50,192 nucleotides of DNA. It comes from a phage. This document shows positions 19,001 through 40,548 of this stretch, piece after piece. The first letter of the stretch is position 1; each line of letters starts with the position of its first letter. The position numbers and the translations under genes were made by a program. The DNA lies in sequence record PZ445416.1; one strand, 5' to 3'. Below the pieces are notes generated by a model. The model had not been told where the DNA came from and did not search any database. It saw nothing but the letters and a program-made list of their open reading frames with translations.

Positions 19001-19516
19001 GACTTAACGTTAAGCGCGCGACTTGGGAATAACGAGGCAGCACTTTCTCAAAAACTTGACTCGTGGAGTAACGCCGATTCGACTGGTGCAATGTACGGCG
19101 TCAAGCTGGGTCTGAAATACAACGGCCAGGAATACAGCGCAGGAATGGCTATGTCTCTGATTGGTTCCGGGGCTGCGGTTAAAGCGCAAATTCTATTCGA
19201 AGCGTCACGATTTGCAATCATGACTGGAATGAACGGTCAGACTCAGTATCCTTTCGTTGTTGAAGGTAATCAGGTGATTCTTAATAGTGCCATCATTAAG
19301 AACGGATTCATCACGAATGCGATGATTGGTAATGTTATTCAATCGAATAACTATGTCGTTAACAAGGCTGGCTGGAGACTTGACAAGGGAGGTACATTTG
19401 AAAACTACGGAAGTGATGGTGAGGGTGCAATGAAGCAAACTAATACCACAATATCTGTTAGGGATGCGAGTGGTCGCCTGAGGGTTCAGATTGGCAGGTT
19501 GACTGGCTCATGGTAA
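16097..19516 (+). CDS. tail tip / host-specificity protein (lambda J-like)
   Basis: 1139 aa, largest tail-tip ORF, with central fibronectin-III-like repeats and a C-terminal receptor-binding region; followed by terminator. Confidence 0.8.
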   Translation: MIQKVISGSKGGSQKPHNPVEMEDNLISINKIKILLAVSDGEIDETFSLKQLMFNSVPVQNEDGSFNFEGVKAEFRPGTQTQEYIKGMEDSSSEVTVNREVTTDNPYTISVTNKTLSAIRIKMFMPRGVRIESNGDKNGVRVEYEVQQAVDGGSFETVLTDVIEGKTMSGYDRSRRVNLPNFNNQVIFRVVRKTPDSNDSNVVDAIQVRSYAEVIDAKFRYPLTGLLFVEFDSKMFPNQLPTISIRKRWKIVNVPSNYDPESRTYNGNWDGTFKKAWTNNPAWVLYDLMINQRYGLDQKELGIAVDKWALYEAAQYCDQMVPDGKGGTEPRYLCDVIIQSQTDAYKVIRDICSIFRGMSFWNGESISVIIDRPREPAYIFTNDNVVNGDFSYTFASEKSMYTTCNVMFDDEQNMYQQDVEPVFDREATLRFGNNVTSITAIGCTRRSEANRRGRWILKTNLRSTTVNFATGLEGMIPTIGDVVAISDNFWSSNLTMNLSGRLLEVSGSQIFLPFRVDARAGDFIIVNKPDGKPVKRTISSVSADGKTIEINIGFGFPVKPNTVFAIDRTDIALQQYVVTKIDKGDDDEEFTYKITAVEYDPNKYDEIDYGVNIDDRPTSIVEPDQIPKPKNVKVSSESRIVQGMSVETMIVSWDKVPYAVFYDVQWRKDNGNWQNVPQTANKEVYVEGIYAGNYQVRVRSVAGSGTTSGWSNIVAATLTGKQGEPGRPINLTATDDVVFGIRTKWGFSDGSGDTAYTELQQSPDGTVDNASLLSLIPYPQHEYYHSPMPGGNIVWYRVRTVDRIGNVSQWTDFVRGMASTNVDDIIGEISVDIENSPGYEWLVDNATDNASQNAANAEAAIENALANDKDAIYMKKENGKRKAEYTKSLKLIADETEARVTAVEQLRASFGDQISASNSELREVIATETGALSREIDQLKAEIGDDIQASLTDIREAIANETEARTQADLTLSARLGNNEAALSQKLDSWSNADSTGAMYGVKLGLKYNGQEYSAGMAMSLIGSGAAVKAQILFEASRFAIMTGMNGQTQYPFVVEGNQVILNSAIIKNGFITNAMIGNVIQSNNYVVNKAGWRLDKGGTFENYGSDGEGAMKQTNTTISVRDASGRLRVQIGRLTGSW

Positions 19517-19522
19517 TATCAA

Positions 19523-19549
19523 GGGCATCGAGAGATGCCCTTTTCTTTT
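19523..19549 (+). terminator. rho-independent terminator after J-like gene
   Basis: GGGCAT, loop CGAGAG, ATGCCC, then TTTTCTTTT. Confidence 0.65.
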
Positions 19550-19561
19550 GGAGGATTTATT

Positions 19562-19867
19562 ATGGCGTACGGTATATCAACTTGGGACACAAATGGCGTT
19601 TATAATAACTATGGAATTAAGCCCGTCACGGTTGTTGGTTGGAACTTTTTGTCAGCAGGCCAGAATTCAGCATCGTTCAGCTATCAAGTGCCACCTGGTA
19701 TGCATGTGAACTACGTTATAAGCCTTGACGACGGCGCCATTAGTGGGCCTGGCAGGAAAATTATTGCTAGCGGTAATACGATAACAGTAACGCCAGCAAA
19801 CTCACCTGGGCCAAACGTGTACCCATCATCAAACTGTTACTTAATAGCATATCTGGAGAATGATTAA
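19562..19867 (+). CDS. hypothetical tail-associated protein
   Basis: Start at MAYGIST after GGAGGA; beta-rich; downstream of J. Confidence 0.45.
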   Translation: MAYGISTWDTNGVYNNYGIKPVTVVGWNFLSAGQNSASFSYQVPPGMHVNYVISLDDGAISGPGRKIIASGNTITVTPANSPGPNVYPSSNCYLIAYLEND

Positions 19868-20556
19868 TGTCATACGGTGCTTTTATAGATGTAAACGGAA
19901 ACCCATTCATAACCCCGCTATCCACGCCATTCGCTTTATATGCGAGAGGGGAAATTAAATCAGTAAATGTTAGTGGTTCACAGGTTGCGGAGAGATATGT
20001 TCGGATACCTACAGGTGTTCCGGTTATAGCTTTTTGCAAAACAACAAACACGCAGCAGGGGACCGCGCTTTCAGCCTTTACTTTCAGAAGCGGACCCAAT
20101 GTTGGAACTGTTTATATAAGGGGGACAAATCCAGCAAACCAATCATACACACTAACATATTACATATTTGCCATATTTGAGCAGTCACTACCGAGCTGGG
20201 GTATGGCGATATGGGATGCGTCAGGAAAGCTAGTGCTGACAAATGAGACAAAAGTCCTTAGTGATTTGGTTACAATCGGCACTCCTGGATACGCTGGCGG
20301 CGGATTAAACATAGACACAACACTCAGCGGAAGCTACGCAGTTGTTCCAACTATACTTGGCAACTATCAAATTGTTATTGGCAGGCTGCCAACTGGGCAA
20401 CCCATAATAGGAAACTCAACAGCAGGCAGTTCATGCAGGTACAATGGGAGCACAACGAGAATAAATGCAGCAGCAACCACTGCAGCGGGTCAGATAATGA
20501 ACACCACAAATAATGGAAATATTATAACAGCAATCAAAACGGCAGCGTACGACTAA
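19867..20556 (+). CDS. hypothetical tail-associated protein
   Basis: 229 aa, Gly/Thr/Asn-rich, start overlaps upstream stop; last gene of the late block before a bidirectional terminator. Confidence 0.45.
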   Translation: MSYGAFIDVNGNPFITPLSTPFALYARGEIKSVNVSGSQVAERYVRIPTGVPVIAFCKTTNTQQGTALSAFTFRSGPNVGTVYIRGTNPANQSYTLTYYIFAIFEQSLPSWGMAIWDASGKLVLTNETKVLSDLVTIGTPGYAGGGLNIDTTLSGSYAVVPTILGNYQIVIGRLPTGQPIIGNSTAGSSCRYNGSTTRINAAATTAAGQIMNTTNNGNIITAIKTAAYD

Positions 20557-20579
20557 GCCCCTTGCGGGGCTTTTCTTTT
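20557..20579. terminator. bidirectional terminator between late block and cor
   Basis: GCCCCTTGCGGGGC hairpin flanked by T-tract downstream; lies between convergent genes. Confidence 0.7.
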
Positions 20580-20805
20580 ATATCGAGCAATCGTGAGATT
20601 TGAAGTTTTTCTCTGATACATAGTTGAAGGAGAATGGGTATCCAGCACGCAATACCATCTCCTTTCCGCGCATCTTAGAGCCAAAAACGTAAACCGAGTA
20701 CTCCGCGCCACCTGATTCATAAATTGCCGTGCAAGTACGCTCAGGCATCGATGAGCAACCAGTCAGGATGAATGCCGAAGCGATAATGGTGATTAACTTT
20801 TTCAT
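20578..20805 (-). CDS. cor: Cor-like superinfection-exclusion lipoprotein
   Basis: 75 aa with lipoprotein signal MKKLITIIASAFILTGC; own near-consensus promoter; position after tail genes as in T1/phi80-type phages. Confidence 0.6.
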   Translation of the reverse strand: MKKLITIIASAFILTGCSSMPERTCTAIYESGGAEYSVYVFGSKMRGKEMVLRAGYPFSFNYVSEKNFKSHDCSI

Positions 20806-20833
20806 TTGTATGTCCTCGTCGTTAGTGTGATTG

Positions 20834-20862
20834 CATTGTATGTCGCATTTACTTTTATTGCA
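20834..20862 (-). promoter_or_regulatory. sigma70-type promoter for cor-like gene
   Basis: Minus strand TTGCAA (20862-20857), 17-bp spacer, TACAAT (20839-20834), about 28 nt before the start codon. Confidence 0.55.
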
Positions 20863-20966
20863 ATAGCACGATTACAATTTTCGTGTAACAGGTGTCTATT
20901 TTTGTAACCGGAGCGGGTGTTACAAAATCCACCCCATCCGACCGCAGAGGGGTATGATAAAAACTC

Positions 20967-21022
20967 TATATAATATATATAGATAGATAATATTTAATTT
21001 TAGCTTTATATATATAATTATT
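20967..21022. repeat. TA-rich tract with element TATATAATATATATAG
   Basis: TATATAATATATATAGATAGATAAT... within the 525-bp non-coding gap between cor and the exonuclease gene; the same 16-mer recurs at 40251-40266. Confidence 0.7.
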
Positions 21023-21270
21023 GTTGTGTAACAGTTGTCTATCGTGTAACTGGTGATTTGATTGATTCGTCAAATTTCTATCATATACGTTCAAAATTTA
21101 ATCAATATGGATTCTACTTGTAGCTATCTCTGTATTTCTAAGAAAAATCGGTTACAAGTATTACACAGTAGACATCACATAAAAATAGACTTAAGCCATT
21201 GATTCCGTTAATGCTGGTTGTAACTTGAGCGATATAGACACGCTATTACACACCAATTACATGTATCCGA

Positions 21271-21298
21271 TTGACTAAACGCTGTTAATGGCTATAAT
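21271..21298 (+). promoter_or_regulatory. sigma70-type early promoter for recombination module
   Basis: TTGACT (21271-21276), 16-bp spacer, TATAAT (21293-21298); leader CATCGTAAACGAAGGAG before the ATG at 21330. Confidence 0.6.
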
Positions 21299-21329
21299 GG
21301 ATTCATCGTAAACGAAGGAGATAAACGCA

Positions 21330-22394
21330 ATGTTCCAGGTATTCACATCAAGTCAGCTTTCTAATGACGAGTATCATAGCAACGAAGGTTGGGCGGCAGA
21401 GTATGTAAGCGGTTCGAGCCTTGCAGAAATTTATCAGACTTGCCCGGCTAACTGGCGATTCAAGAAGAACGAGACGACTAAAGCGCTGGAGTTTGGTACT
21501 CAGTCGCACACCAACTTTGAGAGCCGAGATCTGTTTACTGCATCGTATGCGCGTTGTCCGGCTCCGGCAGAGTTTAAAGATCTCATTACTTCGCAGGCGG
21601 CGCTGGCAGCAAAATTAAAATCTTTTGGCCTGAAAGGTACATCCGGTAAGCAGTACCCGGACCTCATCAAAATGATGGTTGATTGTGGCGAAGACCTTAA
21701 CGTTCAATACCTGATTGAACTGATCGCAGAGGCTGAGGCTCGCGCTGAAGGAAAGAAACTCGTCGACGCTGATAAATACGACGCCTGCATGAAGATGAGA
21801 GCTATACTTGAACAGAACCCCGATCATGAAGCGTGCATCAACAGCGAAACAGCGCAGCGTGAAATCTCAATCTTCGGTGAAATATCCGGCGTCAAGGTTA
21901 AGGTTCGACTAGATCATCTTGACTATAAAGAGAATGTACCAGGTCGTGTACTGACTGGTTATGATGAGAATGGTGATCCGGTATTTGAAGACGTAATTTT
22001 CCCGGAAGCACTGATTATCACAGATTTCAAAACTACGATGAGCGCCAACCCGTTAGAGTTCCCGAGACTGGCATACAATCACGGTTATTACCTGAAGATG
22101 GCATTGCAGCATGACCTGCTACGTCGCGCAATCCAGGCTGGCGCTTTTGAAGGAAACTTCCCGGAAGATATTCCGATCGTAGTTCGATTGCTTGCGCAGG
22201 AGAAAAAAGAGCCTTATATCGCACTGGCTTACCGTATGACTATGGAGCAAATCAGGATCGGTCGTAACCAGTACATTAGCGTAGTCCACACTTACAAGGC
22301 TTGCTCTGAAATGGATGTTTGGCCTGGGTACGCTGGCGACGCAAGCGAGATCGAACTTGAAACGCCATCATGGGTGCGTTACCAAAATAAGTAA
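21330..22394 (+). CDS. PD-(D/E)xK exonuclease (RecE/YqaJ-like)
   Basis: Motifs VRLDHLD and IITDFKT fit the D...(D/E)xK nuclease signature; followed by Erf and SSB. Confidence 0.6.
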   Translation: MFQVFTSSQLSNDEYHSNEGWAAEYVSGSSLAEIYQTCPANWRFKKNETTKALEFGTQSHTNFESRDLFTASYARCPAPAEFKDLITSQAALAAKLKSFGLKGTSGKQYPDLIKMMVDCGEDLNVQYLIELIAEAEARAEGKKLVDADKYDACMKMRAILEQNPDHEACINSETAQREISIFGEISGVKVKVRLDHLDYKENVPGRVLTGYDENGDPVFEDVIFPEALIITDFKTTMSANPLEFPRLAYNHGYYLKMALQHDLLRRAIQAGAFEGNFPEDIPIVVRLLAQEKKEPYIALAYRMTMEQIRIGRNQYISVVHTYKACSEMDVWPGYAGDASEIELETPSWVRYQNK

Positions 22395-22468
22395 ACGGCA
22401 CAAATAGCTAAACAAATAATTAATGAGGTGTTATAATGCACCTCATACACCAATCAGGAGAAGTTAAT

Positions 22469-23116
22469 ATGCAATTATCACCAGAAACAAACGAAATCCT
22501 TCCTGCACTGTTCAATGCTCGCAACAAATTCGCGAAAGCAAAGAAGGACGCTAAAAACAATCACCTGAAAAATTCATACGCAACTCTTGATGCAATGATG
22601 GCGGCAGTAAGCCCGGCGCTAACCGATAACGATATCATGATCCTGCAATCAATGCTGGATACCAGCACTGAAACAACTTTCCACCTTGAGACTATGTTGA
22701 TTCACAAATCAGGGCAATGGGCCAAATTCTTCATGATGATGCCTATTGCAAAACGCGATCCGCAAGGCGTAGGATCTGCAATGACTTACGCTCGGCGCTA
22801 CTCACTCGCTGCGGCGCTGGGGATTAGTCAGAGTGATGACGATGCTCAGCTTGCAGTGAAATCTGTCAAGGACTGGAAAAAAGAACTTGATGCGTGTGAA
22901 GATATCGAATCACTGAAAGAGGTATGGGCCAGCGCCTACCGTCAGACTGACACGGCAAGTAAGTCAATTATTCAGGATCACTACAACGCACTTAAGGCTA
23001 AGTTTGAGATCGGTAAAGCTCGTGGTATTCGCCCGGCGCAACCGGAACAGAAAAAACAGGTTGAAGCAACTAGCGCGAAGCCTGTACAATCTCAATCAAT
23101 CACCAACTTCGAATAA
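22469..23116 (+). CDS. Erf-like single-strand annealing protein
   Basis: Start at MQLSPE after CAGGAGAAG; motifs NSYATLDAMM and TYARRYSLAAALG resemble the Erf family. Confidence 0.6.
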   Translation: MQLSPETNEILPALFNARNKFAKAKKDAKNNHLKNSYATLDAMMAAVSPALTDNDIMILQSMLDTSTETTFHLETMLIHKSGQWAKFFMMMPIAKRDPQGVGSAMTYARRYSLAAALGISQSDDDAQLAVKSVKDWKKELDACEDIESLKEVWASAYRQTDTASKSIIQDHYNALKAKFEIGKARGIRPAQPEQKKQVEATSAKPVQSQSITNFE

Positions 23117-25635: not shown

Positions 25636-25673
25636 AACACAGATTTTATCATTGCTCTATGAGTCTTGCAACG

Positions 25674-39895: not shown

Positions 39896-39939
39896 ATCAT
39901 ACACTGCCAGCCTGACCAAGTCGTTAGCAAAAAATGCTA
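39896..39939 (-). promoter_or_regulatory. Box-A cassette (minus strand) upstream of C5-methyltransferase-like gene
   Basis: Minus strand perfect palindrome TAGCATTTTTTGCTA, 23 bp, TATGAT, leader CCAATCAGTAGGAG. Confidence 0.6.
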
Positions 39940-40020
39940 TTCCAATAGTTGCTCATTATTCCACCAGTAATGGAATATCTGGAATAATTGCGATCCCGAT
40001 TGATCTCGAATGATGAAATG

Positions 40021-40090
40021 TGATTGTTGCATGATGTGCAACTGTTGATGTGATTGTTGCTTGGAATGCAATGATTGTGAGAGGGAGGAT
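40021..40090. repeat. iteron-like direct repeats and short palindromes
   Basis: 13-mer ATGTGATTGTTGC at 40028 and 40058 (30-bp register), plus palindromes TTGCATGATGTGCAA and TTGC-N6-TGCAA. Confidence 0.55.
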
Positions 40091-40129
40091 TTAGTGTTAC
40101 CCGGTTCGCCTGGTGGTCATCTCCATTTT

Positions 40130-40144
40130 TAGCAAAACGTACTA
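40130..40144 (-). promoter_or_regulatory. isolated Box-A-like site within AT-rich hub
   Basis: Plus strand TAGCAAAACGTACTA (minus strand TAGTACGTTTTGCTA); no hexamer at the cassette position. Confidence 0.4.
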
Positions 40145-40230
40145 TCGATTACACTTTAACTTGTCACGATTGTAATATTTGTCTAGAATCGCACTTGTGA
40201 CAAAATTACGCACTGTGACGCATAACAATA

Positions 40231-40300
40231 GACATATAGATATATGTATATATATAATATATATAGTGTTTTTTTTATTTATATATATAGATAATCATAT
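40231..40300. repeat. TA-rich tract with element TATATAATATATATAG (second copy)
   Basis: TATATGTATATATATAATATATATAG...ATATATATAGATAAT inside the 630-bp non-coding hub between the divergent early clusters. Confidence 0.7.
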
Positions 40301-40548
40301 TGTAATAGTTGTGTATAGCTGTCTTACATTGTCTAGCGTACTGTTGGCATATTTCTATCTGCATGTTTATATATACAGTACTTTTTTGAGAGCTATATAT
40401 TTCTATGGTTACTCTAGACAGCTAGACAAATGTTACACGGCTTAAAATTGACTCGCAGGCATTGACAGCTCTACATCACGTTGTCACAATGGCAATTGTT
40501 GACACATTATGACGCCATTTACACACAAATAGACAAAGAGGATATATT

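Follow-up and report, generated by a model that had tools for sequence, protein, structure and literature searches.

Cor of a T1-type phage: a long-known exclusion lipoprotein gene behind a conserved, lineage-specific sigma-70-like site

Phage T5 makes a small outer-membrane lipoprotein, the early-expressed lytic conversion lipoprotein Llp (PDB 8A60 chain B), which blocks the receptor FhuA from the periplasmic side; Cor is a small lipoprotein of the same kind, and published models propose that it acts alike. That Llp is 'expressed early during infection' is stated in the title of Decker et al. (1994). A recent preprint on the FhuA:Llp complex reports that the Cor proteins of T1, phi80, mEp167 and HK022 share the Llp fold (bioRxiv 10.64898/2026.03.26.714494), and for the T1-like phage KanT1 a Cor model that compares with Llp at a TM of 0.69 has been docked on the periplasmic face of FhuA, and an AlphaFold3 prediction pairing a near-identical Cor with FhuA reached an ipTM of 0.84 (PMC13164509). 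Despite this likeness, Llp and Cor have only marginal sequence similarity, come from different phage families and stand in different promoter contexts. The T5 llp gene adjoins the gene for the receptor-binding protein (RBP), in opposite, divergent orientation.

Cor is found in both temperate and virulent phages. In temperate phages the prophage expresses cor as a lysogenic-conversion 'moron', and for such homologues FhuA inactivation and exclusion of FhuA-dependent phages have been shown by experiment (Uc-Mass 2004 and others, as cited in the sources consulted). The phage described here is virulent, and its closest counterparts occupy the same position in T1 (ORF30, AAP49969; 'Cor superinfection exclusion protein' in RefSeq) and in the Tunavirus phages JMPW1, IME167, phi2013 and KanT1. 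According to the T1 record's own note, cor has been annotated in T1-type phages since the T1 genome paper, and RefSeq carries the name Cor on this protein in dozens of relatives. The finding is therefore that of a long-known, already annotated gene, an ordinary feature.

We analysed cor in a window of 50,192 nt of phage DNA (record PZ445416.1), where the original prediction had placed a 75-aa Cor-like lipoprotein, transcribed against the late block from a near-consensus promoter of its own. We favour, with a probability of roughly 75%, the reading that this is cor of a T1-type phage, a separate unit read by the host sigma-70 polymerase and encoding an FhuA-blocking lipoprotein. The features on which this reading draws are as follows.

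20578-20805, minus strand: cor coding sequence from the list of open reading frames, ATG start, 75 aa including the signal peptide, with the stop codon TAA at 20578-20580 inside the range
20755-20805, minus strand: lipoprotein signal peptide (residues 1-16) and lipidated Cys17 (20755-20757), from the translation
20813-20817, minus strand: Shine-Dalgarno sequence GAGGA, 7 nt ahead of the ATG and unchanged across 8 Tunavirus sequences
20835-20840, minus strand: candidate -10 hexamer TACAAT (5/6), from which transcription would start near 20828, leaving about 23 nt of 5' UTR
20858-20863, minus strand: candidate -35 hexamer TTGCAA (4/6; palindromic), with a 17-nt spacer (20841-20857) between it and the -10
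20555-20572, both strands: GC-rich hairpin common to the convergent late operon and cor, a canonical intrinsic terminator for the plus strand only

The reading frame bears out the 75-aa lipoprotein. Its N-terminus consists of an n-region MKK, a hydrophobic core and the lipobox L14-T15-G16-C17 (LTGC), that is, the signal peptide MKKLITIIASAFILTG followed by the cysteine, as in a lipoprotein, and then by Ser18; serine rather than aspartate at +2 predicts sorting to the outer membrane. All of 17 Cor homologues keep G16 and C17, and the T1 record AY216660 marks a ribosome-binding site at the position of the Shine-Dalgarno sequence. Pfam gave only sub-threshold matches, to LPAM_1 (19.2 bits, slightly under the cut-off of 20) and Phage_lipoprotein (15.9 against 27), and it is NCBIfam and PHROGs that settle the family: the protein matches the equivalog NF047972 'phage exclusion lipoprotein Cor' with 55.6 bits against a cut-off of 31 (E = 4e-15, residues 1-73) and PHROG_1119 'Cor superinfection exclusion protein' with E = 1.1e-29 (residues 1-74).

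Compared with T1 Cor (AAP49969), 74 of the 75 residues are identical; the sole difference, S10 here and A10 in T1, falls within the signal peptide and leaves the mature proteins the same. Cor proteins of the temperate phages N15, phi80, HK022 and mEp167 belong to the same NF047972 family at about 35% identity to the present protein, with which they share the lipobox cysteine, Cys25 and Cys73, and the AGYPF motif. Over the 17 homologues, which range from Tunavirinae to HK022 with identities down to 36%, C25, C73, A54, G55, Y56 and P57 of the mature domain are invariant and F58 nearly so. Taken with the conserved position and the predicted fold described below, the family matches and the 99% identity to T1 Cor fully support the identification, made from sequence, of the gene as cor of a T1-type virulent phage.

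An AlphaFold2 model of Cor, with pLDDT of 83-90 over the mature domain, is a small five-stranded barrel. Among solved structures this predicted beta-barrel appears closest to T5 Llp in its complex with FhuA (8A60 chain B). A profile of the 17 Cor proteins also found 8a60_B as its best sequence match in the PDB (E = 0.0023), over residues 1-44 in an alignment to which the signal peptide contributes most, and a Foldseek search of the PDB with the Cor model did not have Llp among the 50 best-ranked matches.

The surroundings of the gene are those of a Tunavirus. Over 19500-22500, identity is 98% to Escherichia phage JMPW1 and 95.5% to coliphage T1, and 27 Tunavirus-type records have full-length matches. 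Up to position 20556, every open reading frame of at least 90 aa (terminase, head and tail genes and a 1139-aa J-like tip protein) lies on the plus strand, so cor, on the minus strand, does oppose the structural block as had been claimed. Past 20556 comes this single small minus-strand gene and then, on the plus strand, recE-like, erf-like and ssb genes. Cor thus directly follows the two genes of the receptor-binding locus on the opposite strand and diverges from recE. The same place after the RBP locus is held by cor in T1, JMPW1, Sfin-3, Henu5_2, Sf12, MM01, Henu8, morffagbaw and SSL-2009a, and the convergent arrangement recurs across Tunavirinae, Tempevirinae, Rogunavirinae and Dhillonvirus. 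The neighbouring proteins of the RBP locus are 97% and 99% identical to their T1 counterparts, and the receptor of T1 is FhuA according to literature cited in one of the sources consulted; FhuA is therefore very likely the receptor of the present phage as well.

The hairpin between the late operon and cor is flagged by a terminator scan for the plus strand only, and the T1 record annotates a plus-strand terminator at its position. It would shield cor from convergent late transcripts. Read on the cor strand (20572 to 20555), the hairpin is followed by AGTCGTAC, which has no T-run, so transcription of cor may continue into the RBP gene as antisense RNA; the intrinsic terminator of its own, in the direction of cor, that would be expected of a 'moron' is absent.

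Upstream of cor lies the sigma-70-like site with a 17-bp spacer that had been claimed, but its match to consensus is weaker than the 10 of 12 positions first given: TTGCAA and TACAAT agree at four and five of six positions, nine of 12 together, and the feature as originally drawn ended at 20862, one base short of the -35 hexamer, which begins at 20863. The mismatches fall on positions 4 and 5 of the -35 and position 3 of the -10, all weakly conserved, and there is no extended -10. The core promoter should nevertheless work alone, because the most conserved positions (TTG and TA...T) are all kept. With hexamers close to TTGACA/TATAAT, a spacer within 16-18 bp and a short leader, the site has the composition of a sigma-70 promoter; as a sequence feature it is real and conserved, but only a moderately good promoter of the host type.

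By simple count such a match is unremarkable, as there are 11 sites with at least nine of 12 matches in 19500-22500 against 6.7 +/- 2.5 in shuffles, and two others on the same strand lie farther upstream of cor (21140-21111 and 21041-21014). The hexamers could therefore be a product of chance, cor being read instead from the AT-rich intergenic centre or from a non-canonical phage-specific promoter, which we consider very improbable. Under a position-weighted score, built from the classical Escherichia coli hexamer frequencies, the cor promoter reaches 12.5 bits and ranks 10 of about 500,000 positions in the window; the number of promoter-like sites is again not above chance, since 10 sites reach at least 12.5 bits against 7.75 +/- 2.4 in Markov-1 simulations. 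What argues against chance is where this one lies. Its -10 ends 29 nt before the ATG, it is the sole site above 8 bits within 250 nt upstream of cor (the next-best has 7.6 bits), and for any given start codon the chance of a site of this quality on the correct strand and no more than about 80 nt away is only about 0.6%. The top-scoring sites are, moreover, not scattered at random: seven of the 10 lie fully within gaps between open reading frames, such gaps accounting for 16% of the window (binomial P = 2e-4), and six of these seven are 30-122 nt upstream of an open reading frame on the same strand, the seventh being 360 nt away. Among the 10, at rank 6 with 13.0 bits, is TTGCAA-17-TAAAAT at 25643-25671 (minus strand), 44 nt upstream of a minus-strand gene for a 660-aa tail-fibre-like protein, which thus has the same -35 hexamer as cor.

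Conservation points in the same direction. The whole region between cor and recE was aligned for eight sequences, those of the window and of seven Tunavirus relatives that are only 2-6% diverged. From the -35 hexamer to the Shine-Dalgarno sequence 50 of 51 columns are invariant, the one change being in the spacer, compared with 84% of columns over the whole region, and variation is found just 5' of the -35, in the length of an A-run and in the bases adjoining the ATG. The promoter sequence is identical in T1 and other Tunavirus phages, and the T1 GenBank record has no annotated cor promoter. When IMG/VR was scanned with both hexamers masked, 12 of 12 loci kept TTGCAA and TACAAT; seven of these contigs are relatives already aligned, and the two sets together comprise 13 distinct Tunavirus sequences. 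The hexamers are thus conserved beyond their immediate background, in closely related sequences; because the relatives are so close and other stretches of the cor-recE region are just as invariant, this conservation is supportive rather than decisive.

More telling, as far as sequence comparison goes, is the parallel in Dhillonvirus, an independent lineage, where cor is preceded by TTGCAA-17-AATACT, with a TG at -15/-14, ending 30 nt before the ATG, while the rest of the upstream DNA is unlike that of Tunavirus: the -35 hexamer is the same, and so are the spacing and the distance to the gene. The canonical promoter is, however, not family-wide. In Tempevirinae (nine loci) cor is preceded by ATAGCACTTTTTGCTAAAC, then 18 nt and TATAGT ending 31 nt before the ATG, and in Rogunavirinae (four loci) a unit of the same ATAGCAC...TTGnTAAAA type lies upstream of a small hydrophobic open reading frame that precedes cor. 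That other subfamilies of the Drexlerviridae drive cor from such a non-canonical unit is a point for the chance reading of the hexamers, yet no ATAGCAC-type unit lies upstream of cor in the present window. A private promoter therefore seems general for cor, and the canonical -35/-10 type specific to some lineages. In the temperate phage HK022, where cor is on the plus strand of its record, the best sigma-70-like site upstream is weak (7.2 bits).

The small open reading frame of Rogunavirinae, of about 34 aa (MTNFATNVMAFTFGVATTGFFVWVLLLASKFNGF), lies directly upstream of cor on the same strand in all four loci (at 790-897 in locus L005), which suggests a two-gene cassette with a possible membrane partner.

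The ATAGCAC-type unit corresponds to the 21-nt repeat aaATAGCACnnnTTGnTAAAA described for phage TLS, which is said to occur in T1 as well and whose function has been listed as an open question (PMC11447400). In the window the pattern ATAGCAC-N3-TTGnTAAAA has 27 copies at up to three mismatches, mostly between genes, pointing with transcription, and in the non-structural half of the genome. Examples are as follows.

29671, 30694, 32682, 41313, 42053, 43073, 43634, 44360, 45907, 46427 and 47800, plus strand: copies of the repeat
34463, 36625, 37125, 37640, 38757 and 39174, minus strand: copies of the repeat

By our reading of the copies, about 20 have a -10-like hexamer (TATAGT, TATAAT or TATTAT), always 19 nt past the repeat. 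At 22 nt from that hexamer, the TTGnTA inside the repeat is too distant for a -35 role. The 46 nt after the repeat fold much more stably than their shuffles (mean z = -2.1, compared with -0.2 for random 46-mers), into a hairpin of variable sequence that either ends at the hexamer or encloses it. In six copies forming a GAA subgroup the stem has 7 bp with the hexamer in the loop, 95% of cells are paired and four of the seven pairs have changed on both sides; the covariation score of 0.73 compares with 0.27 in shuffles (0 of 500 reach 0.73) and with at most 0.28 for slid partners, but it is a lead and not a test, because the six copies were chosen after inspection. The units look like either a non-canonical promoter class or a box-plus-hairpin RNA element. 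As an isolated gene on the opposite strand, cor is a natural promoter trap, since in any lineage the element in front of it has to be its promoter. In Tempevirinae the ATAGCAC-type unit is the only conserved element before the isolated cor, and in Rogunavirinae it precedes the open reading frame before cor, so these units are most simply read as promoters.

Beyond its core, the cor promoter of Tunavirus is accompanied by further conserved elements, which it shares in part with the promoter of the divergent recE gene.

20882-20899, minus strand: upstream box ATAGACAcctGTTACAC (ATAGACA-N3-GTTACAC), 19 nt before the cor -35
20900-20927, strand-neutral: palindrome TTTTGTAAC-N10-GTTACAAAA, a candidate protein-binding site immediately beyond the upstream box
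21234-21251, plus strand: counterpart box ATAGACAcgctATTACAC, 19 nt before the -35 of the recE promoter
21271-21298, plus strand: recE promoter TTGACT-16-TATAAT (11/12), the strongest canonical promoter near cor

These elements bear on the claim that cor is expressed independently of phage factors, which is not secure, as judged from the sequence: the conserved elements at 20882-20927 could make the promoter factor-dependent. It may be that a phage or host DNA-binding protein, acting on the GTTACA/TAGACA boxes and the palindrome, controls the cor and recE promoters jointly, so that Cor is timed rather than constitutive; we regard this as unlikely. The box, in the general form ATAGACA-N3/4-RTTACAC, stands at the same 19 nt from the -35 in both promoters, and it is mostly conserved in Tunavirus, but in T1 itself it is degenerate (ATATACGcctGTTACAC, with ATATACG). 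Among relatives the palindrome varies in its 10-nt spacer, whereas its arms are conserved save for a single change, in ADB-2. Of 25 TGTAAC/GTTACA hexamers in the window, seven cluster in 20884-21219, where about 0.2-0.3 would be expected, and the composite TGTAAC-N3-TGTCTAT has five matches against 1.06 expected (0 of 100 shuffles reach five). Against these signs, the A-run between the upstream box and the cor promoter ranges from 4 to 8 nt among close relatives, and a strictly positioned activator is disfavoured because such changes in length alter helical phasing. The binding protein is, besides, hypothetical, and the core promoter, as argued above, should work without it.

A second divergent region, at 39920-40548, is partly paralogous to 20806-21329 (about 80 nt at 76% identity, E = 4e-6), and its paralogous part, at 40.17-40.44 kb, again lies between divergent genes and shows the same motifs together with an AT-rich core, which likewise speaks for joint control. 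Both regions have a TATATA-rich core, with 20% GC at 20950-21049 in the cor-recE region, flanked by TGTAAY-N3-TGTCTA motifs, and a block of about 150 nt in the latter (20935-21085) is nearly invariant in the eight Tunavirus sequences. Tentatively, instead of holding two constitutive promoters that act independently, the cor-recE region of about 525 bp could serve as a dedicated control region or a replication origin, though we think the odds are against it. GC skew tracks gene orientation only and speaks neither for nor against an origin in the intergenic region. The GTTACA boxes were compared by eye with DnaA, LexA and CRP sites, which were rejected, the matches being too poor. Because an Rfam scan of 20400-21400 returned nothing at E <= 1, the intergenic region appears to hold no known RNA element.

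In the same gap, a 46-aa open reading frame (21062-21202, plus strand) is the hypothetical CDS CPTT1_049 in the updated T1 record but is not annotated in RefSeq JMPW1; since it shares sequence with the repeat-rich control region, it may be no gene at all. Read-through from the minus-strand genes at 23.6-27.2 kb was also considered as a source of cor transcripts, and rejected because the plus-strand recE-erf-ssb block and terminators intervene.

We thus return to the reading of cor as a separate transcription unit, which, from its sequence and conservation, would be read by unmodified host sigma-70 RNA polymerase. Transcription would start near 20828 and give a leader of about 23 nt with a good ribosome-binding site, and from a host sigma-70 promoter Cor could be produced as soon as the DNA enters the cell. 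Early expression without the help of phage factors is accordingly plausible on the sequence, and by analogy it plausibly fits the precedent of T5 Llp. A literature search found no transcript mapping or transcriptome of any T1-like phage. Judging from what is known of the family, Cor would be exported, lipidated and sorted by Lol to the outer membrane, where it would bind the periplasmic face of FhuA and close it allosterically into a state unusable by T1, T5, phi80 and their relatives. The infected cell would thereby be protected from superinfection, and Cor probably also prevents the loss of progeny to FhuA on cell debris. The known exclusion experiments were made with cor of N15, phi80 and mEp167 and, to our knowledge, none with that of T1. 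That Cor excludes FhuA-dependent phages, as the original prediction had it, agrees with the literature on its homologues (PMC13164509; bioRxiv 10.64898/2026.03.26.714494).

In itself, the finding of cor has very little significance, the Llp-like fold and the docking model with FhuA having already been published in 2026. What our analysis adds is a corrected description of the cor promoter, as a nine-of-12 match that is conserved and lineage-specific. Were the cor-recE region indeed a dedicated control region, a DNA-binding protein would time Cor synthesis together with the recombination genes, and the cor promoter of Tunavirus would be of another class than the ATAGCAC-type units, roughly 27 in number, by which most non-structural genes are served. 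Of wider use is the observation that cor, as a promoter trap in Tempevirinae and Rogunavirinae, argues that the 21-nt repeats of T1-like phages are promoters.
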